Positions 14,865-32,954 of a DNA stretch of 64,000 bases are shown here, piece by piece (position 1 is the stretch's first letter; each line of letters begins with the position of its first letter). This DNA comes from Patescibacteria group bacterium (lineage in GTDB: Bacteria > Patescibacteriota > Minisyncoccia > Moranbacterales > UBA2206): assembly GCA_022711335.1 (NCBI GenBank), contig JAKLFF010000001.1, forward strand, positions 405,754-469,753, given 5' to 3'. The translations under genes were made by a program, and so were the position numbers. Below the pieces are notes generated by a model that was not told where the DNA came from, made no database searches, and saw nothing but the letters and a program-made list of their open reading frames with translations.

Positions 14865-16760
14865 GTGAAAAATAAAATAAAAATAATTATACGTTTTTTT
14901 ATATTCGCACCGCTTTTGTGTATAGCGATTTTTATTTTCCCTAAAAAATGCCTATCTGAATCTTCGTTAAAACTTGGCCAGATACAATATAGCGGAGGAG
15001 CTGGAAAAACAGACGAGGATTTTATTAAAATACTCAATCCTACTGATGATAAAATTAATCTTAAGGGACATCGCCTGGTTAAAAGATCCACAGCATCAGC
15101 ACATGATACAACTATAAAAGCCTGGACAGAGGATGACTTTATTCCTCCAGAAGGATTTTATCTGTGGGCAAACAGCAAAAATGGATTCGCCGCAAGCATT
15201 AACGCAGGCGCCAGTACCACAGAAACAATTGCGGAAGGAAACGGCATCGCCTTAAGATTTGGAAAAGAAGATGAAGGAATCATTATTGACAGTATCAATT
15301 GGCAAGAAGAAAAAGAGCCGTCAGAAGAAAACCCTTCTCAAACAGAAGCAAAGAATTACCTGGAAAAAGTCAGATTCAATGAGATATTGCCTTCACCGAT
15401 CAGCGGCGAGAAAGAATTCGTGGAAATTATCAATTTGACTGAAGAAAGCATTGATTTTTCCAAATGGTATGTCAAAGATGAAAAAAATAACAAAAAATCA
15501 CTTTCTGGCGGAATTATAAAAAATAATTTTTATTACAAGCTTGATGCTTTTTCCTTGAACTCGGAAGGAGACTCTGTTTTTCTGTACGATGAAAATGATA
15601 ATCTAGTGGACAGCTTAAGCTATATCCGTTCAAAATCAAGCTATTCATATTCCTTCGATAAATCATCCTGGCGCTGGACAAAATATCCGACACCTGGAGA
15701 AGAAAATCGTTTTGAAAAAATTCTTGATGGAAAAATAAAAATGGACAGCGAAATATACGCCAATGTTTATGCTGATTTTGAAGCAAAAACCGGAAAAGAA
15801 ACCCAGAAATTCAAATGGAATTTTGGCGACAGCCGCGGAAGCACTCTCAAAAAAACCCGCCACAAATATGAAAAAGCCGGAACATATAATGCCTCCCTTA
15901 AAATATCCGGCGATGGAGAAGAAAGTATCCTATATTTTACAGTCAAAGTTGAAAATTACTCGGCTCCAAAAGTCAGGATTATAAAAATCGCCCCCAATCC
16001 GAAAGGCAAGGATTCAAAAGAATATATTGTTATTGAAAATAAATCCAAAAATAAAATCGATCTTGAAGGCTGGAGCATTGCCACCGGCTGGAAAGGTCTG
16101 GTTAACCATCCGATCAGAGACGATTTTATAATCAAGCCCGGAAAATCTAAAAAGCTTACCAAAAAAATATGCGCTTTCACGCTCAATAATTCCCAAAACA
16201 AGATTGAGTTGCGCTATCCAGATGGAAATGTGGCCCAAAAAATAAAATATAATCGAAAAAAAGACAAGATTGAAGATGATGAAATTTTTGAAATAACAGA
16301 AAAAAACTGGACGTGGAATAAACCGCAAAATAGCACGGGAGAAACATTGGCTGACGCAAAAAATGCTTCAACAAGTTCTTCCACCCTTGTCCCGCCAGAA
16401 GGCAAAGCACCAGAAGAAGACCCGGGGAACGCCGACCCAGAAAAAGAAAACGCTGCAAATCAGGAAGAAAATGTGCTAAATACTGATATTCAAATAGACA
16501 ACTTGGAATTCGAATCCAATCTCGGAAAATTTTCCGAAAACCCGAGCTTTACTGCCAAAAAGAAAAACCGCATCCAATTGGTAAGCTACGCCACGCAGAT
16601 TAATATGCCCGATTTTGTTCCAAAACCAACCGGCCAAATTGCCGGCGCTTACACGGAAAAAATTGTTTTTTTCGAAAAAAAACACTGGCTCCTCAAGACA
16701 ATCAGTCAAACATGGACTGGGCTTAATTCTGGAATAAACCAGCTTCTAAACAAACTTTAG
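14865..16760 (+). CDS. Secreted lamin-tail-domain (LTD) repeat protein with a PKD-like domain
   Basis: Signal peptide, then three LTD-like units (LKLGQIQYSGG...DDKINLKGHRLV; VRFNEILPSP...EFVEIINLTEESIDFSKWYV; VRIIKIAPNPKGKDSKEYIVIENKSKNKIDLEGWSI). A PKD-like segment (KFKWNFGDSRGS...YEKAGTYNASLKISGD) is also present. The track starts at a GTG at 14865, with AAGGAGG immediately upstream. Confidence 0.6.
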   Translation: MKNKIKIIIRFFIFAPLLCIAIFIFPKKCLSESSLKLGQIQYSGGAGKTDEDFIKILNPTDDKINLKGHRLVKRSTASAHDTTIKAWTEDDFIPPEGFYLWANSKNGFAASINAGASTTETIAEGNGIALRFGKEDEGIIIDSINWQEEKEPSEENPSQTEAKNYLEKVRFNEILPSPISGEKEFVEIINLTEESIDFSKWYVKDEKNNKKSLSGGIIKNNFYYKLDAFSLNSEGDSVFLYDENDNLVDSLSYIRSKSSYSYSFDKSSWRWTKYPTPGEENRFEKILDGKIKMDSEIYANVYADFEAKTGKETQKFKWNFGDSRGSTLKKTRHKYEKAGTYNASLKISGDGEESILYFTVKVENYSAPKVRIIKIAPNPKGKDSKEYIVIENKSKNKIDLEGWSIATGWKGLVNHPIRDDFIIKPGKSKKLTKKICAFTLNNSQNKIELRYPDGNVAQKIKYNRKKDKIEDDEIFEITEKNWTWNKPQNSTGETLADAKNASTSSSTLVPPEGKAPEEDPGNADPEKENAANQEENVLNTDIQIDNLEFESNLGKFSENPSFTAKKKNRIQLVSYATQINMPDFVPKPTGQIAGAYTEKIVFFEKKHWLLKTISQTWTGLNSGINQLLNKL

Positions 16761-16816: not shown

Positions 16817-18160
16817 TTAATACAGATATCCCCACATCTGAAGCTTATCTGACTCATGAAGCCACTTTTCCCCGATATCTGTCCGGTAATACATATTTTG
16901 CAAGATAATATTGTTCACTCTGAAATAGGCCTGCTTTCGGGCGCCTTCAACAGTTATGCCTGACCCCGTCACAACGAGAACATATCCCGAGTCTCCAGCC
17001 ACTGAAAATGAGCCGTTGGTTTTTTTGACATCCCCCAGATGAATCCCGTCCAGGCTCGGCTTTTTGAAAAGAATGGAAAGATCTTTATGCAGCGCAGTCT
17101 CCGAAGGATCTTCAAAAGGAAATGGAGGAACAACGACGACAACTCCCACTTGAAATCCTTTTTTCACCTTAAGATCAACTTTTTTCTTATTGGCTATATC
17201 GAAAAGAAATTCCCCCCAGCTGCTTAAAACTCCTTCCGACTGGATGCTGATGGTCGGGTAGCCAAAACGGGAAGTAAATTCCAAAGGATAAACTCCCCTG
17301 GCATTGGCAATGCAATTTATATCAATATACCCGACATAGCCCGACTCAGCCAGCGCATCTTTCATCTTGAAAAGGGTGTCATTAAATATTTTATTGGGCG
17401 GAGACCAGTACATCAAAGTCCCCATTTCCCCGGTATAGGGGCCGATGTCTCCCGGAAACAGCTTTTTGTGCTCAAAATTGATATTAACAGGATAGACAAA
17501 GTCTTCTCCGTTGAAAAAAGCTCCAGCTGCCACTTCTACGCCTACGGCCATTTTTTGAAGCTGAAATTTTTTTATCTTTTTCGCCCAGGCTTTTTTATTT
17601 TGTTCCAAAATTTCAATCAGATCTTTTCCGTCGTCTTCATGAGCCATAAAAAGTACTTTCTGATCGGACATAAGAAATCCGGAAGGCTTGAAAACATACC
17701 GGCCGGGATTATTTCTAACAAATTCTATCGCTTCATCAAAACTTTCAAAATCCCAATGCGGAAGAACAGAAAGGCCGAATTTTTTCATTTCATTTTGCCC
17801 AAACTCCCGATCTTCTTCTAATTTGTCAGTGTATTTGCTTCCGCCGACAACCGGTTTCCCCTTGGCTCTAAGCTCATCAGCTTCTTTGCCATAGCCGATA
17901 TCATCAAATACGATAATATCCGCCCAATCAACAAATTCTTTCCAATTTTTTACCTTTTCCAAAAGTCCGTCGTAAACATCCTGATCTTGCTCCCTCTCAA
18001 AAGATACTTTTACCTCATGGCCTTCTTTTTTAATCTGCCAGGCTAGATCGCCATTCAAACTTTCCGGGGAAACAAACAGGAATTTCTTCGGACTTTCGGT
18101 CGGCTTCATTTTATTTCCGTTTGACATAATTTTTTTTGAAACTGAATAAATTTTAAACAA
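16817..18160 (-). CDS. ATP-grasp enzyme, phosphoribosylamine-glycine ligase (PurD)-like
   Basis: ATP-grasp pattern with ...GPYTGEMGT... and CIANARGVYPLEFTSRFGYP, resembling the PurD ET..RFGDPE region. The start may be an internal Met (MSNGNK at 18127). Confidence 0.5.
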   Translation of the reverse strand: MFKIYSVSKKIMSNGNKMKPTESPKKFLFVSPESLNGDLAWQIKKEGHEVKVSFEREQDQDVYDGLLEKVKNWKEFVDWADIIVFDDIGYGKEADELRAKGKPVVGGSKYTDKLEEDREFGQNEMKKFGLSVLPHWDFESFDEAIEFVRNNPGRYVFKPSGFLMSDQKVLFMAHEDDGKDLIEILEQNKKAWAKKIKKFQLQKMAVGVEVAAGAFFNGEDFVYPVNINFEHKKLFPGDIGPYTGEMGTLMYWSPPNKIFNDTLFKMKDALAESGYVGYIDINCIANARGVYPLEFTSRFGYPTISIQSEGVLSSWGEFLFDIANKKKVDLKVKKGFQVGVVVVVPPFPFEDPSETALHKDLSILFKKPSLDGIHLGDVKKTNGSFSVAGDSGYVLVVTGSGITVEGARKQAYFRVNNIILQNMYYRTDIGEKWLHESDKLQMWGYLY

Positions 18161-19716: not shown

Positions 19717-19771
19717 ATTCTGCCTAAAAATAATTGCGCCTGGCAGAAACTTTGACGGAATAAAAAATATT

Positions 19772-20431
19772 ATGGAAATACATTTAAGTCCGATAGTTGG
19801 CTTTTTTGCCGGACAGGGAGTGCCTTTGGAAACCATTCTTCTTCTCCTTATGCTTCCAATTATCGCCACATTTATCGCTTTCCTCCGCCAAGTCGTCGGG
19901 ATCAAGGCCTTTGGAATCTATACTCCTCTCATAGTCACTTTTTCCTTCCTAGCTACCAACGGAGTGAAGTATGGAGCAACAATTTTTCTTTCCGTTGTTA
20001 TTATCGGAATGCTCATGAGATTTGCACTCAAGCCTTTCAGGCTTCTTTATCTTCCGCGCGTCGCCATAATGCTCACCGTCGTCACTATTGTGATTTTGGG
20101 CATTTTGGTTTTAGGAGGAAATGCAAGAAGAACCGGTTTAGCTCACGTTTCAATTTTTCCAATTTTAATAATGATCACCATTGTTGAAAAATTCGTCGCT
20201 GTCCAAATTGAAAAAGGAGACAAGATGGCCATCCGGCTGGCGTTAGAAACTTTGGTTATTTCCATTTTAGGATATTACTTGGCCAGTTCAAAAATTCTTT
20301 TGGAATTTATTGCCAGCTATCCATGGACAATTCTTTTTACTATTCCAATAAATATTCTTCTCGGCAAGTGGACCGGTCTTCGCCTCACAGAATATTTCCG
20401 GTTTAAAGAAGTAATTAAGAAAATGCCTTAA
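19772..20431 (+). CDS. Polytopic (about 7-TM) membrane protein, partner of the RimK-like ligase/aspartic-protease system
   Basis: 219 aa, about 6-7 predicted helices, with its stop 3 nt before the RimK-like gene. It resembles the 7-TM module that is fused to an inactive transglutaminase domain in the three-gene system described for these ligases; the synteny argument is inference. Confidence 0.4.
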   Translation: MEIHLSPIVGFFAGQGVPLETILLLLMLPIIATFIAFLRQVVGIKAFGIYTPLIVTFSFLATNGVKYGATIFLSVVIIGMLMRFALKPFRLLYLPRVAIMLTVVTIVILGILVLGGNARRTGLAHVSIFPILIMITIVEKFVAVQIEKGDKMAIRLALETLVISILGYYLASSKILLEFIASYPWTILFTIPINILLGKWTGLRLTEYFRFKEVIKKMP

Positions 20432-20433
20432 TT

Positions 20434-21876
20434 ATGTTTGGATTTATAAAAAAAAGCCGGAAAATTTTAGGGATGGATGCAAGAAATCTTATCTACATCC
20501 GCCCTTTTAACTTGAAATCAGCCAAAAAAATTGCTGATGATAAGCTTCTTTGTAAAAAAATCCTCAAAAAAAACGGCATTTCTGTCCCTAAGCTTATCGC
20601 GAAAATAAAAACCTATGAAGAGCTGGAGAATTTTGACTGGTCCACTCTTCCAGACAGCTTTGCGTTGAAACCGAATCGCGGCCTTGGCGGAGAAGGGATT
20701 ATTGTCGTTTATGGAAAAAAGAAGCCTGCCCGCAATGCTTTGCTCGGCAATGCAGACGAAAATACGCCTGCCTGCTGGATAAAAGCCGACGGAAGCCTTA
20801 TCTCAATAGAAGACTTAAAAGCTCACATCCGAAATATTCTGGATGGTTCCTTTTCTCTTTCCAATACTCCCGACACGGCTTTTTTTGAGGAAAGAATCCG
20901 GCTTTTGAAATTATTTAAACCCTATTCATATAAAGGAATCCCGGATATTCGTATCATTGTTTTTAATAAAGTCCCGGTTATGGCCATGCTACGCCTGCCA
21001 ACCGAGGCATCTAAAGGAAAGGCTAATCTCCAACAAGGCGCTATTGGCGTGGGAATAGACCTTGCCACCGGAACCACAACGACAGCCGTCCTAGGAAAAA
21101 ATAAACTTATTGAATATGTTCCAGGCACGAGAATGTTGCTTTCGGGAATAAAAATCCCCTATTGGAATGATATTTTAAATTTGGCCGTAAAGACACAAGA
21201 AATTTCGGGACTGGGATATTTAGGCGTTGATGTAGCCATCGACAAGGAGGATGGCCCGATTATTTTGGAACTCAATGCCCGTCCGGGCCTTTCCATTCAA
21301 ATTGCCAACCTTGCCGGACTCAAAGAACGGCTGGAAAGAGTTTCGGAGCTCAAAATAAAAACCGCCAAAAAAGGCATCCGGGTCGGAATGGATCTCTTTG
21401 GAGGAGAAATTGAGGAAGAATTGGAAGAAATTTCCGGAAAAAAAGTAATAGGCACCGTGGAAAAGGTAAAATTAATTGGAAAAGACGAAAGAGAAATAGA
21501 GTCAGAAGCCCGAATTGATACAGGCGCGTATTCCAGCTCAATTGATGCAGAATTAGCCAAGGAGCTTGGCTTTCAAAAAACACTTGAAGAATTTTCAAAA
21601 ATTGATTTGGCCGCATATGAAATATCACACGAAAAAGAAAATGAAATAAAAAAGGTTTTTATGGAAAAATACAAAAAAATTATACCTGAGATCGAAGATG
21701 TCGCCGTGGTGATCTCCTCAAGCGGCTCCTCAATTAGGCCAACAATAAAAATTAATTTTATTTTAGACAAAATAACTATCGCGTCTAAGGTTAACGTCAT
21801 TGACAGAGGAAATCTAAAATACCCCATATTGATTGGCCGAAGCGATCTTAAGAAATTTCTAATTGAAATAAAATAA
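20434..21876 (+). CDS. RimK-type ATP-grasp ligase (alpha-L-glutamate-ligase-like) fused to a C-terminal retropepsin-like ('ATP-dependent zinc protease' family) domain
   Basis: ATP-grasp core (KPNRGLGGEGIIVV..., DIRIIVFNKV..., NLQQGAIGV..., ILELNARPGL). The C-terminal ~130 aa contain ARIDTGAYSS (a D-T/S-G-A aspartic-protease signature) and ...YPILIGRSDL. Confidence 0.6.
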   Translation: MFGFIKKSRKILGMDARNLIYIRPFNLKSAKKIADDKLLCKKILKKNGISVPKLIAKIKTYEELENFDWSTLPDSFALKPNRGLGGEGIIVVYGKKKPARNALLGNADENTPACWIKADGSLISIEDLKAHIRNILDGSFSLSNTPDTAFFEERIRLLKLFKPYSYKGIPDIRIIVFNKVPVMAMLRLPTEASKGKANLQQGAIGVGIDLATGTTTTAVLGKNKLIEYVPGTRMLLSGIKIPYWNDILNLAVKTQEISGLGYLGVDVAIDKEDGPIILELNARPGLSIQIANLAGLKERLERVSELKIKTAKKGIRVGMDLFGGEIEEELEEISGKKVIGTVEKVKLIGKDEREIESEARIDTGAYSSSIDAELAKELGFQKTLEEFSKIDLAAYEISHEKENEIKKVFMEKYKKIIPEIEDVAVVISSSGSSIRPTIKINFILDKITIASKVNVIDRGNLKYPILIGRSDLKKFLIEIK

Positions 21877-22799
21877 TGAAAGAACTGCTAGTGTTAATCC
21901 TTTATGACAAAAGCAATAAAAATGCAGAGGATTTTCCTTCCGCCTATAAAGATCTGTATGCATATTTAAAAAATAAGAATGTTATTCTCTGTAGAGCCAA
22001 AATAGCTTCTTTCGATAAAAAAACTGGTTTTTTTAAGAAGGCGCAATTTTATAACAAAAACTGGTTTTTTAGAAAAAATGTGCGTCCGGATTTGGTTTAT
22101 GACAAATCCCCTTTTATTACTGACAAAAATTTGATGGTTCTCAGAAAATTAATAGCTAGGTGCTATCCTTTTTGTAACTCCCTGAATCTGAGCAAGCTGC
22201 TAAGCGATAAATGGCTAACCTACAAAGCTTTCTCTGATTTTTCTCCAAAAGCAGTTCTTGTTACTAGTAAGAGTGACTTGGGAAAAATAAAGCAATTATC
22301 TTCCCAAAAAATAATCCTTAAGCCGCTTGGAGGTTCTGGCGGCAAAGGAATAAAAATATTTGAAAAGAGCGCTATGAAGCCGGTTCTTTATCCATTCCTG
22401 GCGCAAGAACTGATTGAAGTGAAAAAAGGGATTAAGGGCTTTGCATCGGGAGCACATGACTTGCGCATAATGATCAGGAATGAAAAGATTTTTTATTCTT
22501 TTCTCAGAATACCGCAAAAAAACAAGTTGCTTTCCAATCTTTCCCAGGGAGGGACAGTACGAGTTGTTCCCATAGACAAACTTCCTAAACTAGTTTTTCC
22601 ATTCATTAAAAAAATTCAAAGCAAACTGAAAAAATACAAGATAAAACTATATTCCATTGATATAATAATCGACGACAACAAAAAGCCATGGATTATTGAA
22701 ATGAATTCACGCCCGGGAATTACTCTCGAAAAAGAAGAATTGCCATATCGCGAATATTTTTATAATAATTTGATAATTTTTTTCAAAAAAGCCCTATGA
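21876..22799 (+). CDS. RimK-type ATP-grasp ligase paralog
   Basis: ILKPLGGSGGKGIKIF, DLRIMIRNEKIFYSFLRIPQKNKLLSNLSQGGTV, IIEMNSRPGI. Start/stop coupled with its neighbours. Confidence 0.55.
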   Translation: MKELLVLILYDKSNKNAEDFPSAYKDLYAYLKNKNVILCRAKIASFDKKTGFFKKAQFYNKNWFFRKNVRPDLVYDKSPFITDKNLMVLRKLIARCYPFCNSLNLSKLLSDKWLTYKAFSDFSPKAVLVTSKSDLGKIKQLSSQKIILKPLGGSGGKGIKIFEKSAMKPVLYPFLAQELIEVKKGIKGFASGAHDLRIMIRNEKIFYSFLRIPQKNKLLSNLSQGGTVRVVPIDKLPKLVFPFIKKIQSKLKKYKIKLYSIDIIIDDNKKPWIIEMNSRPGITLEKEELPYREYFYNNLIIFFKKAL

Positions 22800-23764
22800 A
22801 AAAAGTCATGATTCTTTTTGGAAAAGACAGCTGGAAAAAAAGCAAGCCTTTTTCTAATAAAAAATATATGTATTCTTATGAGTATTTCTACGCTTTGTGC
22901 AAAAAAGAAGGAATACAAATACTCAGAGCTTCTTATGAATGGTATGATTACAAAAATAAATTTTTCAAATATGCCTGGGTATTTGAAAAAAGCAGCAGCA
23001 TATGGAAAAGAGCTTATGACATCAGGCCAGATTTAATTTATGATAAAACAAAATCAACACCGGAAGCCTATTTAAAAAGCTCCTTGATACGCGCCAACTA
23101 TGCTTTTTTCAATGACATTGAATTTTCTAAAATAATAGACAATAAGCTGGCGGTCGGGCTCTTCTTTTCGGATTGGTCTAAAAAAAGCCTGCTAATTGAA
23201 GATTTGAAGCATTTATCTGTTGCTCTTAATAAAATTTCCAATAAACAAAAAATGGTTTTGAAGCCGGCGAATCTCAGCGGCGGAGAAAATGTATTCATAG
23301 GGCAAAAAGCTGAGTTGATAGAGAGAGTCGGCGCGGCCAAAATAAACCTTACTGATTGGATACTCCAGGATTTCATCGACTCATCTGATGGAATACCTGG
23401 GATAATGAGGGGCATTCATGATCTAAGATTAGTGATCATTGATACTGCTATAGTTTATTCCTATTATCGAACGCCAGCAAAAGGAAGCCTGCTGGCCAAT
23501 TTAGCCCAGGGAGGATCCATGGAAATTGTGCCTCTAAAAAAGCTCCCCAAAAGCATTCTTCCTATCGTAAAAAAGGCCAATCAACTTTTTTCCGGATTTG
23601 AGCATAAGATATATACTATTGACCTGATGTTTGACAAAGACAAGCAGCCTTGGATAGTGGAGCTTAATTCAATGCCTGGAATGTATTTTGCTCCAGGACA
23701 GGAAAAAACCAGAGACTTTTTTTATAAAAAGTTGGCATCTGTTTTTAAAAATATTTTGAACTGA
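22796..23764 (+). CDS. RimK-type ATP-grasp ligase paralog
   Basis: VLKPANLSGGENVFIG, DLRLVIIDTAIVYSYYRTPAKGSLLANLAQGGSM, IVELNSMPGM. Overlaps the previous gene by 4 nt. Confidence 0.55.
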   Translation: MKKVMILFGKDSWKKSKPFSNKKYMYSYEYFYALCKKEGIQILRASYEWYDYKNKFFKYAWVFEKSSSIWKRAYDIRPDLIYDKTKSTPEAYLKSSLIRANYAFFNDIEFSKIIDNKLAVGLFFSDWSKKSLLIEDLKHLSVALNKISNKQKMVLKPANLSGGENVFIGQKAELIERVGAAKINLTDWILQDFIDSSDGIPGIMRGIHDLRLVIIDTAIVYSYYRTPAKGSLLANLAQGGSMEIVPLKKLPKSILPIVKKANQLFSGFEHKIYTIDLMFDKDKQPWIVELNSMPGMYFAPGQEKTRDFFYKKLASVFKNILN

Positions 23765-23770
23765 TTTTTT

Positions 23771-24631
23771 ATGCGAATCTGCGTAATTACAGACTACGAA
23801 AAATCCTATTCCTCAGTTAAATTACTTCGCGAAGCGGCTGGTTTTGGCGTTAAAATATTCTTTTTCAGATGGAAAGATATTGTTTTTGACGGGACAAATT
23901 TGGGTTTTGCATCAAATAAAAAAGTGGCCTTGGATAGTTTTGACGCTGTAATATTGCGCAGCTCCATCACTTCTTTGACGCCAAGCAGCCTGGTTGTAAA
24001 TTATTGCAAACACAAAAATATACGCCTTTTGAATGAAAACTTCTATCTTCGCCACCAATCGATAAATAAATTGACCCAACAATTTATTTTCCAGGCAAAG
24101 AAAGTCCCGTGCTTAAAAACCATTTATGGAGAGAATCTGTCCTTTTCCCAGCTTAAAACTAAGCTTGGATCGCCCTTCGTGGCAAAACTTGCCAAGGGAA
24201 GCCTGGGAAAACAGGTATTTAAAATTGACTCGCAAGGCGCTTTTTCCCATTTTCTTCGCCAGCGAAAAAAAGACAAGCAGCTTTATTTATTTCAAAAATT
24301 CTATAAGATATCCGGCGATTATCGCGCCTTCATTATTGGAAAAAATGTCTATGGCTCTTTAAAAAGAACGGCCCCCAAAGGAGAATGGCGGACAAATGTT
24401 CGCAGTTCAAAACATGAGAAAGTAGAAAATAAGCAGGTTCTTGAACTAGGAAAGCTTCTGATTAAGCGTATTGGGATTGAATTCGCCGGCCTTGACATTC
24501 TCATTGATTCTTCAGGGAAACCACGTATCATCGAGCTAAACACTATGGCTTGCTTCAGGGTCTTTGACCGGATTAATCCGGAAATAAATATTGCAAAAAA
24601 AATAATCCGGTTGCTAAAAAATACCAAATAA
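23771..24631 (+). CDS. RimK-type ATP-grasp ligase paralog
   Basis: VAKLAKGSLGKQVFKI, DYRAFIIGKNVYGSLKRTAPKGEWRTNVRSS, IIELNTMACF. Confidence 0.55.
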   Translation: MRICVITDYEKSYSSVKLLREAAGFGVKIFFFRWKDIVFDGTNLGFASNKKVALDSFDAVILRSSITSLTPSSLVVNYCKHKNIRLLNENFYLRHQSINKLTQQFIFQAKKVPCLKTIYGENLSFSQLKTKLGSPFVAKLAKGSLGKQVFKIDSQGAFSHFLRQRKKDKQLYLFQKFYKISGDYRAFIIGKNVYGSLKRTAPKGEWRTNVRSSKHEKVENKQVLELGKLLIKRIGIEFAGLDILIDSSGKPRIIELNTMACFRVFDRINPEINIAKKIIRLLKNTK

Positions 24632-30676: not shown

Positions 30677-30724
30677 ATTTTTTGTGCTTAAGCAATTCTA
30701 TTCTATCAAATCCAGGGAAAAGAA

Positions 30725-30815
30725 AAAAGGCGAGCGGGTCGTGGCGTGGTAGCCTATCCCGGATGCTCGCCCTTAGCGGTTTCGGTTTTTTTAGGGAGAC
30801 CGAAAACTCCCGCCG
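30725..30815. repeat. Structured ~85-bp element, copy 1 (direct repeat of 31737-31827)
   Basis: GGCGAGCGGGTCGTGGCGTGGTAGCCTATCCCGGATGCTCGCC (stem GGCGAGC/GCTCGCC) + TTAGCGGTTTCGGTTTTTTTAGGGAGACCGAAAACTCCC (second stem GGGAG/CTCCC). Nearly identical to the copy 1 kb away. Confidence 0.6.
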
Positions 30816-30841
30816 GCTATTCAGGGGATGCCGGTCACTCC

Positions 30842-31093
30842 TCAAAAAATTTGTTTTTTTCGGCCGGTCCACCAGCCGACTTCCTCCTCCCGCACCTTCA
30901 AGATGCAGGAGATCTCGAAGTAGTCCTTGGGCTCTCCAAAGCCCTCAGACTCTTCGACTGTGTCTAAAAACAACTGTTCCTCGCCGGTGGCGAGGAACTT
31001 CTTCTCTAATTCCCTGACCACGTCGCCGTGGCCAGAGTCGAACAACAGGCCGTGTCGCAGCCCGTTGTCCTTGATTTCAAATTTCTTTCCCAT
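30842..31093 (-). CDS. Hypothetical small protein (GC-rich islet)
   Basis: 83 aa from the ATG at 31093, with a strong RBS (AGAAAGGAGAAAAATATG). The codon usage is visibly GC-richer than in flanking genes. Confidence 0.4.
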   Translation of the reverse strand: MGKKFEIKDNGLRHGLLFDSGHGDVVRELEKKFLATGEEQLFLDTVEESEGFGEPKDYFEISCILKVREEEVGWWTGRKKQIF

Positions 31094-31251
31094 ATTTTTC
31101 TCCTTTCTATGGGAAATTAACTTCACTTCTGAACCCGCAAAGCCAATCTTTACGGGTTCGGAATGAAGGGCAAAACTTTTGTCGTGGTAGACTCAAGTCT
31201 TGCCATTCAAGTGGTTCCCTTTTTATATACCGCTGGGACAGCGGTCGGAAA

Positions 31252-31590
31252 TCAGAGTTTTTCAAAAATCACTCTGATTTCCTTAATCCGGAACCATCCT
31301 GCGTGGCGAAAGCCAAGCAGTTTGGTTCCGTCGACCGGGTCCATGACCCGGTCATTCTTGCAAAAGAGCACGGGCTTGTCAGGCCCGGCTATCTGCAAAA
31401 ACTGCTGCTGCAGCGGAAGTGGGGCCACGATGGCCACCACGTCCGCCGCAGCGATCTCCTCGGCCAATTCATGCGCCGAAGAGATCGTCCGATTGACCTG
31501 GTGAACTTCCACCAGGCCAAAAATTCTTTTCAAGTCGGCCGATTGCTCGGCCGACATCTCATGCCTGGAAAACCACAAGACTTTCGTCAT
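31252..31590 (-). CDS. Hypothetical small protein (GC-rich islet)
   Basis: 112 aa from the ATG at 31590 (RBS AGGAAAGGAGAATCTCATG): MTKVLWFSRHEMSAEQSADLKRIFG.... No motif recognised. Confidence 0.4.
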   Translation of the reverse strand: MTKVLWFSRHEMSAEQSADLKRIFGLVEVHQVNRTISSAHELAEEIAAADVVAIVAPLPLQQQFLQIAGPDKPVLFCKNDRVMDPVDGTKLLGFRHAGWFRIKEIRVIFEKL

Positions 31591-31736
31591 GAGATTCTCC
31601 TTTCCTGCTGAACATTTCCCTTGCGCCGTTTCGCTCCCAACCACATCCTGATCAGCATTCAGGACTGGGCCAAGCGCAAAGAAAATTTTTTCACTTCCGA
31701 TTCTGCGAAGACAATCCTCACAGACTCGGAATGAAA

Positions 31737-31827
31737 GGCGAGCGGGTTGTGGCGTGGTAGCCTATCCCGGGTGCTCGCCTATTTTAGGTTTCGGTTTTTT
31801 TAGGGAGACCGAAAACTCCCTTGAGAG
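31737..31827. repeat. Structured ~85-bp element, copy 2
   Basis: GGCGAGCGGGTTGTGGCGTGGTAGCCTATCCCGGGTGCTCGCC + TATTTTAGGTTTCGGTTTTTTTAGGGAGACCGAAAACTCCC. A truncated third partial copy (CGGAATGAAGGGC) is at ~31140-31165. Confidence 0.6.
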
Positions 31828-32067
31828 CTACCACATCCGGTTGTCACACCGGGGGCAGCCCTCGTTCTTGACGTAGACATACTCGTCTACGCCAAATTCC
31901 TGCCCGCACCGCGGGCAGGAGAAAAAATTTTCATAGACTGCCAGATGGCAGTCTATGCATTCCCTCGCCTTCCCGGCGAGGGAAAAAATCTGGTGTGGAC
32001 AATCGTCCACACCAGATAAAATTCCTTCACTGCTGCAAATTTCGCAGCAGACGAATTTCTTTGCCAT
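31828..32067 (-). CDS. Zinc-ribbon (multi-CxxC) small protein
   Basis: 79 aa from the ATG at 32067 (perfect RBS GAAAGGAGGAACGCC-ATG): MAKKFVCCEICSSEG...CPHQ...CIDCH...CPRCGQEF...CPRCDNRMW, with four CxxC pairs. GC-rich. Confidence 0.5.
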   Translation of the reverse strand: MAKKFVCCEICSSEGILSGVDDCPHQIFSLAGKARECIDCHLAVYENFFSCPRCGQEFGVDEYVYVKNEGCPRCDNRMW

Positions 32068-32326
32068 GGCGTTCCTCCTTTCATGGCAAATGTTAACCTT
32101 TCCCCAGCCAGTGTAACTCCCGACCAGTCCGACACAACGTCGGACCCGGGCCATAGCTGGTTTGTCCAGCACCAACTACTCCTCACTAACAAAAGTTTGT
32201 TTAATAAAGAAAAGTTGGTGCTGGATTTATTCGCATGTGCCCATTCGTTAGGGCTATTCGCATACTTCAACCGAGAGAAAATAAAAGCTAATTGAAATAT
32301 GTAATAATTTATGCTAAGCTATTGCT

Positions 32327-32632
32327 ATGAGTACGGAGCAAATAGAACAAAAACTTATAGAAGCCATTGAAAAAGATCCTCATAAAAAGGACATGAAAAA
32401 AGTGTCTCTTTTCGGTTCTTATATCTATGGCCAACCCCGTGAAGATTCTGACGTGGATGTTTTAGTGGAATTTGAACCTAATTCTAGTATTAGTCTTTTT
32501 GACTTGGTTCATATCCGCCGAAATTTTTCTGAATTTATCGGGAAAAAAGTTGATCTTCTGACACCCTCCGCTCTTAGCAAGTATTTCCGCGATGAAGTAC
32601 TAGCCAAAGCTAAAACCATTTATGAAAAATGA
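32327..32632 (+). CDS. Nucleotidyltransferase (MNT/MntA-type) antitoxin
   Basis: ...VSLFGSYIYGQPREDSDVDVLVEF has the GS...D.D pol-beta NTase signature. Its stop overlaps the start of the HEPN gene. Confidence 0.7.
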   Translation: MSTEQIEQKLIEAIEKDPHKKDMKKVSLFGSYIYGQPREDSDVDVLVEFEPNSSISLFDLVHIRRNFSEFIGKKVDLLTPSALSKYFRDEVLAKAKTIYEK

Positions 32633-32954
32633 TCTCGTTTTTATAGGACATATTCAGGACTCTATCAATAACATCAATGAGTTTATTGGAAACTCTGATT
32701 TTGAAAGTTTTTCTAAAAATAAACTAGTGCTTAGCGGCGTAGTTCACGAATTTGAAATTATTGGCGAAGCCTCCAATAAAATCAGCCGTGAATTTTGCGA
32801 TTCTCACCCGGAAATACCCTGGAGAGACATGATTGATATGCGAAATGTGCTTATTCATGAATATTTTGGTATTATTCCTGAATCCGTCTGGGAAGCTTAT
32901 AAAAAAGACCTCCCCAAGCTTAAAACGGCCATAGACCAAATACTCATTTCTTAA
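32622..32954 (+). CDS. HEPN-domain (DUF86/HepT-type) toxin
   Basis: ...DMIDMRNVLIHEYFGI carries the R-x(4-6)-H HEPN motif. Translationally coupled to the MNT gene. Confidence 0.7.
   Translation: MKNDLVFIGHIQDSINNINEFIGNSDFESFSKNKLVLSGVVHEFEIIGEASNKISREFCDSHPEIPWRDMIDMRNVLIHEYFGIIPESVWEAYKKDLPKLKTAIDQILIS

Follow-up and report, generated by a model that had tools for sequence, protein, structure and literature searches.

A five-gene ATP-grasp ligase operon of uncultured Moranbacteria is a conserved variant of the Rlo/Rim class

The three-gene system made of a seven-transmembrane (7TM) protein, an ATP-grasp ligase and a PF05618 peptidase is now named rloABC, for the retropepsin-like osmotic stress tolerance operon of Pseudomonas aeruginosa. 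It has been partly characterised genetically, and it contributes to cell shape and to the tolerance of hypo-osmotic conditions and of beta-lactams (Lormand et al. 2025, PMC12239564). In the Rim systems, RimK makes poly-alpha-Glu and Glu tails, its substrate being ribosomal protein S6 ending in Glu-Glu, and RimB, which needs at least 5-6 consecutive Glu for cleavage, stimulates synthesis by RimK (PMC11957791). Here we analysed a window of 64,000 nucleotides from an uncultured Moranbacteria genome (GenBank assembly GCA_022711335.1, contig JAKLFF010000001.1, positions 405,754 to 469,753 of the forward strand; coordinates below are those of the window). It harbours a five-gene operon, g1 to g5, that is a genuine, conserved and previously undescribed variant of the Rlo/Rim class. 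A first-pass annotation, made from the letters of the DNA, had placed a five-gene operon at 19772-24631, and all five open reading frames (ORFs) were confirmed there on the + strand. It had also likened the operon to a 'known but functionally unsolved' three-gene system, an apt description of what was named rloABC in 2025, the chemistry of which is still unsolved (PMC12239564). Our literature search returned no description of a Patescibacterial version, nor of MATCAP/DUF1704 proteins linked to ATP-grasp ligases. The features of the operon are the following.

19772-20431, + strand: g1, 219 aa, polytopic membrane protein, homologue of the 7TM domain of RloB
20434-21876, + strand: g2, 480 aa, RloC-type ATP-grasp ligase joined to a RloA/RimB-type retropepsin-like peptidase, predicted to be bifunctional
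20482-21345, + strand: ligase domain of g2, residues 17-304, PF14397 ATPgrasp_ST / TIGR02291
21397-21444, + strand: interdomain linker of g2, FGGEIEEELEEISGKK, residues 322-337
21445-21864, + strand: retropepsin-like domain of g2, residues 338-477, PF05618
21517-21528, + strand: catalytic DTGA of g2, inside the RIDTGAY segment
21736-21738 (R435) and 21805-21807 (R458), + strand: equivalents in g2 of the polyglutamate-binding Arg residues, from the alignment to RloA
21876-22799, + strand: g3, 307 aa, ATP-grasp ligase of the lineage-specific family c0, 'g3-type' subfamily
22796-23764, + strand: g4, 322 aa, ATP-grasp ligase of family c0, 'g4-type' subfamily
23771-24631, + strand: g5, 286 aa, probable RimK-family ATP-grasp ligase, family c1, sub-branch with an altered 'SLGG' loop
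19668-19695, + strand: putative sigma-70-like promoter, TTGCCA-16-TATAAT, 11/12, the best match, by consensus similarity only

The operon shares with rloABC its ligase (TIGR02291/PF14397), 7TM (PF14402) and peptidase (PF05618) families and their co-operonic arrangement. Nevertheless, RloA is a separate protein, secreted with an N-terminal signal peptide, whereas here the peptidase is fused to the C-terminus of a cytoplasmic ligase. RloB has a periplasmic inactive-transglutaminase domain that g1 lacks, one to three additional ATP-grasp ligases (three in the window) follow in the new systems, and the host is a Patescibacterium, in contrast with RloB, which is reported to be 96% proteobacterial (PMC12239564). 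RimK/RimB (RimABK) and the RimBK hybrid of Desulfotalea psychrophila similarly combine a cytoplasmic retropepsin with a RimK-like alpha-L-glutamate ligase (PMC11957791). RimBK is also a natural ligase-protease fusion, and g5 is probably, like RimK, a full-length member of the RimK family. The expected logic is the same, i.e. the protease would trim polyglutamate and modulate the ligase. However, the protease of RimBK is N-terminal of a true RimK, while that of g2 is C-terminal of a TIGR02291-type ligase. Given this opposite domain order and the different ligase family, the g2 fusion probably arose independently of RimBK. The Rim systems also have no 7TM partner and no ligase cassette.

The five genes have the same orientation and are all translationally coupled, as had been claimed from the positions of their start and stop codons: g1 and g2 are separated by a 2-nt gap (TAATTATG), g2 and g3 overlap by 1 nt (TAATG), g3 and g4 overlap by 4 nt (ATGA), and a 6-nt gap precedes g5. 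The putative promoter lies within the 3' end of ruvC, directly upstream of g1. Between this site and the g1 start, the RuvC-g1 intergenic region contains an inverted repeat, TTCTGCC-(17 nt)-GGCAGAA, at ~19719-19749, with no T-run after it. No terminator-like site is prominent inside the operon (10 observed vs 11.8 expected in a scan of 10.5 kb). The 55-nt and 97-nt intergenic gaps that flank the operon contain no ORF of at least 20 aa, in line with the earlier statement that no precursor-peptide ORF is found nearby; they are entered solely by the neighbouring genes and by two antisense ORFs lying largely across g1 and g5.

Profile searches found both an ATP-grasp and a PF05618 domain in g2, the fusion proposed in the first-pass annotation. 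Residues 17-304 match PF14397 (7.7e-70), and residues 7-306 match TIGR02291, 'alpha-L-glutamate ligase-like', with 293 bits (1.9e-87), just below the 314-bit equivalog cutoff. The ligase residues K79, D266, E279 and N281 are invariant in 50 homologues. Based on a structure model of g2 with a predicted local distance difference test (pLDDT) score of 78, the solved folds nearest to the ligase domain in Foldseek searches are those of ArgX/LysX (3vpb, 1.5e-9) and RimK (~1e-8). A Candidatus Moranbacteria metagenome-assembled genome (MAG) in NCBI encodes the same protein with 100% identity, which places the window in a Patescibacterium (CPR).

Residues 338-477 of g2 match PF05618 (1.8e-10), and this C-terminal domain also matches the models of RloA1-3 (6e-9 to 3e-11; 2.7e-11 for RloA3). 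In the alignments to chains 9G59 and 9G58, which are crystal structures of RloA (Lormand et al. 2025, PMC12239564), its DTGA coincides with theirs, so that RIDTGAY was rightly read as a DTG aspartic-protease signature of the retropepsin kind. The polyglutamate-coordinating and catalytic residues of RloA are K46, D48, R114 and R137, and its R114A and R137A mutants are non-functional (PMC12239564). In the alignment with 9G59, they correspond to R360, D362, R435 and R458 of g2, and the two Arg are 23 residues apart in both proteins. D362, T363, G364, A365, R435 and R458 are invariant in the 50 homologues of g2, and position 360 is always Lys or Arg. Thus, as judged by alignment, the g2 retropepsin retains an intact DTGA motif and the Arg/Lys residues corresponding to the polyglutamate binders of RloA. 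The fold was assigned from the sequence alignment to 9G58/9G59; the top 50 Foldseek matches of the full-length g2 model include no retropepsin fold, because the larger ATP-grasp domain dominates them. No signal peptide, transmembrane segment or hydrophobic stretch between the ligase and peptidase domains was found in g2, and based on this predicted topology the protease must be cytoplasmic, like RimB.

The linker between the two domains, FGGEIEEELEEISGKK, hardly varies among 50 homologues of the Moranbacteria clade, and its low pLDDT (below 50) predicts disorder. In distant fused homologues its acidity is gone and its hydrophobic periodicity is retained. As the acidity is not kept, the linker is probably a structural tether, and it may be a docking element. 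That this Glu-rich segment might serve as a pseudo-substrate or autoprocessing site was rejected as a general explanation, since it has at most three contiguous Glu and RimB and RloA need 5-6 and 8, respectively.

The first gene had been claimed to code for a 7TM protein, with which the matches of g1 to PF14402 7TM_transglut (2.4e-31) and to NCBIfam RloB (6e-24) agree. The latter covers solely positions 309-507 of the 508 of the profile, i.e. the C-terminal 7TM portion. Based on this coverage and on the 219-aa size of the protein, the external inactive-transglutaminase domain of RloB is not present in g1. The protein has about 7 hydrophobic segments. Its AlphaFold (AF2) model (pLDDT 76, predicted template modelling score 0.71) has 11 DSSP helical segments of at least 4 residues, and a Foldseek search of this model against the PDB gave nothing significant (best E = 2.3). 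We collected 1744 homologues of g1; the 120 closest among the matches listed are 215-240 aa long, and those at the top are all of 216-224 aa.

To place the operon in context, we scanned one genome per species and found 201 relatives of g2. Unless stated, the counts of loci below come from the best 80 of these 201; with the additional loci L081-L086, 86 loci were analysed in total. The 80 species-level loci are nearly all from Moraniibacteriota or Parcubacteria, with one from Falkowbacteria. All 80 encode the g2 fusion, 53-72% identical, and g1 was detected upstream in 78/80. The gene order YebC - RuvC - g1 - g2 is found in 68/80 loci, and in most of the others the contig ends before the upstream genes. 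PBP1A is encoded downstream in 64/80. Many MAGs titled 'uncultured Bdellovibrionales' (L011, L015, L017, L023-L026 and others) display the YebC-RuvC-7TM-fusion-PBP1A synteny typical of Moranbacteria, with fusion proteins 60-67% identical to g2; these labels are probably wrong.

The slot between g2 and PBP1A ranges from 160 to 6230 bp. One to three same-strand accessory ATP-grasp genes occupy it in 63 of the 64 loci with both flanks (one gene in 20 loci, two in 31, three in 12), and L051 is the sole locus without any. The ATP-grasp families of the slot are c0, c1, three further RimK-like families, one of which is fused to a 300-aa domain, and a biotin-carboxylase-like family. Two more families are similar to the cyanophycin synthetase G domain (1e-52 to 1e-60). 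Other slot genes code for a protein matching the M domain of cyanophycin synthetase (7e-49), a MATCAP/QEGLA-type metallopeptidase (8.6e-31), a YdjC deacetylase and a GT4 glycosyltransferase. The CphA-like genes are stand-alone: c13 (L034, L045, L056), c2 (15 loci, e.g. L043 and L047) and c4 (9 loci, e.g. L018 and L050). Taken jointly, the G- and M-domain homologues resemble a CphA-like enzyme that has been split and joined to the 7TM/ligase-protease core. The ~300-aa domain, which has no Pfam or NCBIfam match, is either fused to a RimK-like ligase (c9, L044:5975-7753) or encoded separately (c11, L015:8116-9033), in which case its gene adjoins those of GT4 and of a c0 ligase.

The c0-c0-c1 layout of the window recurs in L003 and L030. 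In contrast with the core, slot content varies between close relatives: for pairs of species with g2 proteins at least 80% identical, the mean Jaccard index of slot content is 0.42, and content is identical in 15% of pairs. For instance, L017 and L025, whose g2 proteins are 89% identical, have the slots [c0, GT4, X] and [c0, c1, c10], respectively. The accessory ligases thus sit in a rapidly re-assorting cassette beside a conserved core, across Moraniibacteriota. The expansion of the three-gene system by extra ligases that had been noted for this genome was therefore confirmed, but it is not peculiar to it: a variable cassette is the rule in Moraniibacteriota. All c0 members whose context was examined (46 slot ORFs, L081 and L082/L083) occupy this slot. 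They include two more-distant c0 members, which likewise lie between a 7TM-plus-fusion core and PBP1A, one of these loci having four accessory ligases and a different upstream gene.

The accessory ligases of the window, g3, g4 and g5, are all ATP-grasp proteins by profile, in agreement with the earlier count of three extra ligase paralogs. Family by family, the picture is more diverse than the 'RimK-type' label given to all four ligases of the operon, which, taken strictly, would apply to g5; g2 is of the RimK-related TIGR02291 type, and g3 and g4 belong to the lineage-specific family c0. Similarly, the motif pair 'NL.QGG / E.N..PG' attributed to all four is exact in g3 and g4, while g2 has NLQQGA and ELNARPG and g5 has neither motif. 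The g3 and g4 proteins are 35% identical and represent different subfamilies of c0. They have weak matches to several ATP-grasp families (RimK, GshB, YheCD and TTL), those to TTL being 2e-6 for g3 and 7e-8 for g4. The invariant residues of g3 are K112, K149, D195, R197, R211, N221, D262, E275 and N277. The c0 profile matches Pseudomonas RimK over the catalytic half only (4.6e-12), followed by weak matches to GshB and TTLL6. Its alignment with the c1 profile spans its whole length (hhalign 99.4%, 1e-21), and its relationship to the g2 ligase domain is more distant (5.5e-13). A search of 5.8 billion proteins with c0 gave 58 strong matches (E <= 4e-54), followed by a sharp fall to ~4e-7 (YheC/YheD, GshB), and all strong matches with a source name come from Moranbacteria or other Patescibacteria. 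By these matches, c0 appears as a Patescibacteria-restricted family, related to RimK at the profile level.

The g5 protein matches TIGR00768 rimK_fam over its full length (7e-28), with 97.7 bits, under the 143.4 cutoff, and the profile of family c1 spans E. coli RimK 5zct end to end (7e-50; positions 1-287 of the profile on residues 1-289 of the chain). In place of the 'SLGG' loop region of RimK, g5 has RTNVRSSKH, and it has ELNTMAC at the second motif. It belongs to a small c1 sub-branch, with L018:6360-7214 and L041:2571-3488, in which 'N.SLGG' is replaced by 'N.R-[SG][SAT]KH' and 'PQF' by 'ACF/AQF'. These altered loops suggest a changed substrate. All four ligases, g2 to g5, retain the Lys, Asp, Glu and Asn residues for ATP-Mg, and g3 to g5 are predicted to be catalytically intact. 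Could the paralogs be housekeeping enzymes? They reach at most 45 bits with GshB models (cutoffs of 272-408) and at most 19 bits with Ddl (cutoff of 243), and no Mur-ligase domain was found in g1-g5. With scores so far under the family cutoffs, g2 to g5 are not ligases of the Ddl, GshB or MurD housekeeping types.

We then searched for natural fusions of the core ligase. An exhaustive phmmer search of 1.84 billion representatives yielded 1998 matches, 425 of them at E <= 1e-30, and domain architectures were determined for the top 150. The ligase is alone in 52, and ~45 have the ligase and the retropepsin without a further fused domain. In ~46, each of ~790 aa, the ligase, with or without a partial retropepsin, is fused to a MATCAP domain; one such cluster, P0340, includes a Candidatus Peregrinibacteria protein. 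Three are 7TM-ligase fusions (e.g. P0457), one joins ligase, retropepsin and YdjC, and one joins ligase, retropepsin and a c1-like ATP-grasp domain (P0343). Three-part ligase-retropepsin-MATCAP fusions also exist. The D[TS]GA motif is kept in 41 of the 67 retropepsin-bearing representatives, and the endopeptidase seems to decay where a MATCAP carboxypeptidase is fused. In Peregrinibacteria (L084:3957-7890; L085:4256-8189), the system is reduced to two genes, coding for a 7TM protein with an N-terminal PKD domain and for a 798-aa ligase-MATCAP protein, with no PBP1A nearby and no accessory ligases. In L086 it lies between RuvC and RuvAB, without PBP1A adjacency. These arrangements define the core as a 7TM protein and a ligase with one or more peptidases, and the fusions indicate that the membrane protein, the peptidases and an accessory ligase belong to one process. 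Based on these architectures, accessory ligases and peptidases appear functionally attached to the core, while PBP1A adjacency is lineage synteny.

More remote systems offer partial parallels. In cyanophycin synthetase CphA1, which combines an ATP-grasp G domain and a Mur-ligase-like M domain, several amide ligases cooperate on a non-ribosomal polyamino acid, and stand-alone G-like (1e-52 to 1e-60) and M-like (7e-49) genes are found in the slot of relatives; however, the window has no CphA-like gene, there is no N domain, and the enzymes are split and attached to a 7TM/retropepsin core. In the eukaryotic TTL/TTLL and MATCAP/CCP systems, ATP-grasp ligases add Glu or other residues to tails and dedicated peptidases remove them, and other Patescibacteria have the homologous ligase fused to MATCAP-family domains. 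This is nevertheless an analogy of logic, with homology at the superfamily level; the window has no MATCAP gene, and no tubulin-like target is known. LysX/ArgX, whose fold comes nearest to that of the g2 ligase domain among solved structures (3vpb, 1.5e-9), are RimK-family enzymes that ligate onto the C-terminal Glu of a protein, LysW. Unlike in that system, no LysW-like carrier or lysine/arginine pathway genes are found nearby, and the LysX model scores 19-68 bits vs 276.

Our favoured general model, to which we give a probability of about 0.5, is that of a peptide-tail system of the Rlo/Rim class, with ATP-dependent C-terminal extension, trimming, diversification and membrane coupling. The g2 ligase would activate the terminal carboxylate of a primer, be it free Glu, a peptide, a protein or an envelope-precursor carboxylate, and add L-Glu-like residues processively, in the manner of RimK, so as to yield an acidic tail or peptide. 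The endopeptidase domain of g2, which probably dimerises inside a ligase oligomer, would cut Glu-rich stretches and thereby set chain length and/or stimulate the ligase, as RimB does for RimK. The g3, g4 and g5 ligases would add further, possibly different, residues, so that the product might differ between species. The 7TM protein would dock the machinery at the membrane and export, anchor or sense the product. RloA cleaves runs of at least 8 Glu, and deletion of rloB or rloC rescues mutants without the RloA proteases (PMC12239564), which implies a product of RloB and RloC that has to be cleared by the protease. Like the first-pass annotation, we infer stepwise assembly or C-terminal tailing coupled to proteolytic processing, now backed by the domain-fusion evidence.

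Several points weigh against this model. To our knowledge, no PF14397/TIGR02291-type enzyme has a demonstrated substrate or product, and we infer glutamate specificity solely from the residues of the protease. The Pseudomonas protease is secreted and that of g2 is predicted to be cytoplasmic, so the logic of the two systems may differ. As g5 has lost the SLGG loop and g3 and g4 have no characterised relatives, these ligases may not use RimK-like amino acids. The g1 protein has no solved structural analogue, which makes export, anchoring and sensing indistinguishable. The glycosyltransferase and YdjC genes in the slot of relatives hint at a glycan-linked acceptor rather than a free peptide. Lastly, our search of the gaps for ORFs detected no candidate primer encoded in the operon, and rpsF is found neither in the window nor in any of the 86 loci.

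A different, rather unlikely, role would be the modification of envelope precursors: the ligases would add amino acids to the stem peptide, to lipid II or to the carboxylate of a lipid-linked glycan, making species-specific side chains or cross-bridges, the 7TM protein would handle the lipid-linked intermediate and the peptidase would edit. The position of PBP1A directly downstream in 64/80 loci, with a UppP-like gene next in the window, is consistent with it, and this adjacency persists where the upstream RuvC is replaced (L081). Also in keeping with an envelope role are the GT4, YdjC deacetylase and Mur-ligase-like genes in the slot of relatives, the association of one c0 subfamily with GT4 in 9/11 loci, and a variability at the species level that is typical of envelope structures. 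The rlo mutants of P. aeruginosa have cell-shape and beta-lactam phenotypes, and rloABC of Vibrio cholerae is induced by the VxrAB cell-wall-damage regulon (PMC12239564). However, the synteny of YebC and RuvC is just as strong and their functions are clearly unrelated, which makes gene order weak evidence in this phylum, and the PBP1A adjacency is gone in Peregrinibacteria (L084/L085) and L086, where the core is still present; as proof of a peptidoglycan role, this adjacency is weakened on both counts. In addition, the Mur-like protein fits the M domain of cyanophycin synthetase (7e-49) far better than MurE (2e-22), and the conserved polyglutamate-binding residues of the protease suit a Glu homopolymer better than a stem peptide. 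We find it similarly doubtful that the system tails one specific cytoplasmic or membrane protein, such as an RpsF-like target or the 7TM partner, in a 'writer/eraser' tail code, with the 7TM protein being an envelope-stress sensor that regulates the ligase and not an exporter. This would agree with the full-length homology of the c1 family, including g5, to RimK (7e-50), with the action on protein C-termini of ArgX/LysX and RimK, the nearest folds of the g2 ligase, and with the RimB-like cytoplasmic location predicted for a protease with no signal peptide or transmembrane segment. MATCAP-type carboxypeptidase domains, which in eukaryotes act as erasers of C-terminal residues, form fusions with the ligase in ~46/150 representatives, and the external domain of the 7TM partner is variable (none, PKD or inactive transglutaminase), as expected of a sensor. 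Nevertheless, no target is identifiable, rpsF included; P. aeruginosa genetics need the product of RloB/RloC to meet periplasmic proteases, which favours export; and a rapid turnover of accessory ligases would be unusual for a system acting on one conserved protein.

The clustering itself might be coincidental, g1 and g2 alone forming a system and g3 to g5 being independent enzymes, e.g. a true RimK acting on S6 and ligases for cofactors or metabolites, that share a permissive insertion site by chance. Indeed, the slot also takes unrelated-looking genes and is of variable size (160-6230 bp), accessory genes are missing from L051, and Peregrinibacteria have no accessory ligases. We consider this improbable, as the start/stop overlaps join g2, g3 and g4, at least one same-strand ATP-grasp gene is present in 63/64 loci, c0 was seen nowhere outside the slot in the contexts examined, P0343 carries a c1-like ligase and the core enzyme in one polypeptide, and cassette combinations recur. 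Even less credible is a graspetide-type pathway of ribosomally synthesised and post-translationally modified peptides, in which the ligases would macrocyclise or otherwise modify a ribosomal precursor. The g5 protein weakly matches the ATP-grasp maturase family TIGR04187 of such peptides (2.4e-3), and PsnB is among the fold neighbours; yet the TIGR04187 score is 17 bits vs a cutoff of 350, and there is no precursor ORF in or beside the operon, with none of at least 20 aa within the intergenic gaps. Two small ORFs of L081, of 64 aa and 33 aa, were considered as precursors and rejected, being neither acidic tails nor conserved. As for anti-phage defence, g1-g5 had no PADLOC match at E <= 1e-3.

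The peptide-tail model can be extended, more tentatively, to a modular, fast-evolving ATP-grasp 'assembly line', in which a constant, membrane-docked synthase/endopeptidase core of the polyglutamate type and swappable writers and erasers would build species-specific acidic polymers or tails on the envelope. The writers might be the RimK-like, c0 and cyanophycin-synthetase-like halves, and the erasers the retropepsin and the MATCAP-like enzymes. The result would be a non-ribosomal prokaryotic counterpart of the tubulin-tail code.

The neighbourhood of the operon has other features. A gene at 16817-18160 (- strand) codes for a divergent PurD-like ATP-grasp protein of 447 aa, which matches PurD structures (4e-25) and the NCBIfam purD model (105 bits vs a cutoff of 288), and which is not found at the corresponding position in any of the 86 related loci. 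This lineage is said usually to lack de novo purine synthesis, which makes such a gene odd. Upstream of YebC, 14865-16760 codes for a 631-aa surface-type protein with Lamin-tail and PKD domains, and a homologue precedes YebC in 38/80 loci. The stretch at 30700-32300 is GC-rich (0.466 vs ~0.38) and contains short ORFs only; at 32327-32954, two overlapping small genes resemble, as judged by eye, a nucleotidyltransferase/HEPN toxin-antitoxin pair. Together, they may represent inserted foreign DNA. No match was found in the whole window by Rfam or tRNA scans.

The Rlo system is clinically relevant in Pseudomonas, where it affects antibiotic tolerance, biofilm formation and cell shape. The Patescibacterial variant is a natural minimal, fused form of it, with ligase and protease in one chain and a 7TM protein stripped of its external domain, and it makes Rlo chemistry directly testable with few recombinant proteins. 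The natural fusions, of 7TM and ligase and of ligase and retropepsin with MATCAP, YdjC or RimK-like domains, define activities that belong together, and they link bacterial MATCAP homologues to ATP-grasp tail ligases. The rapid re-assortment of the ligase cassette suggests that the product is peptide-based and diversifying, in a phylum with a barely explored envelope biology. If the 'assembly line' extension is true, this product could matter for envelope charge, osmotic homeostasis or host attachment in ultrasmall epibionts, and the long-sought product of the Rlo system would be revealed.

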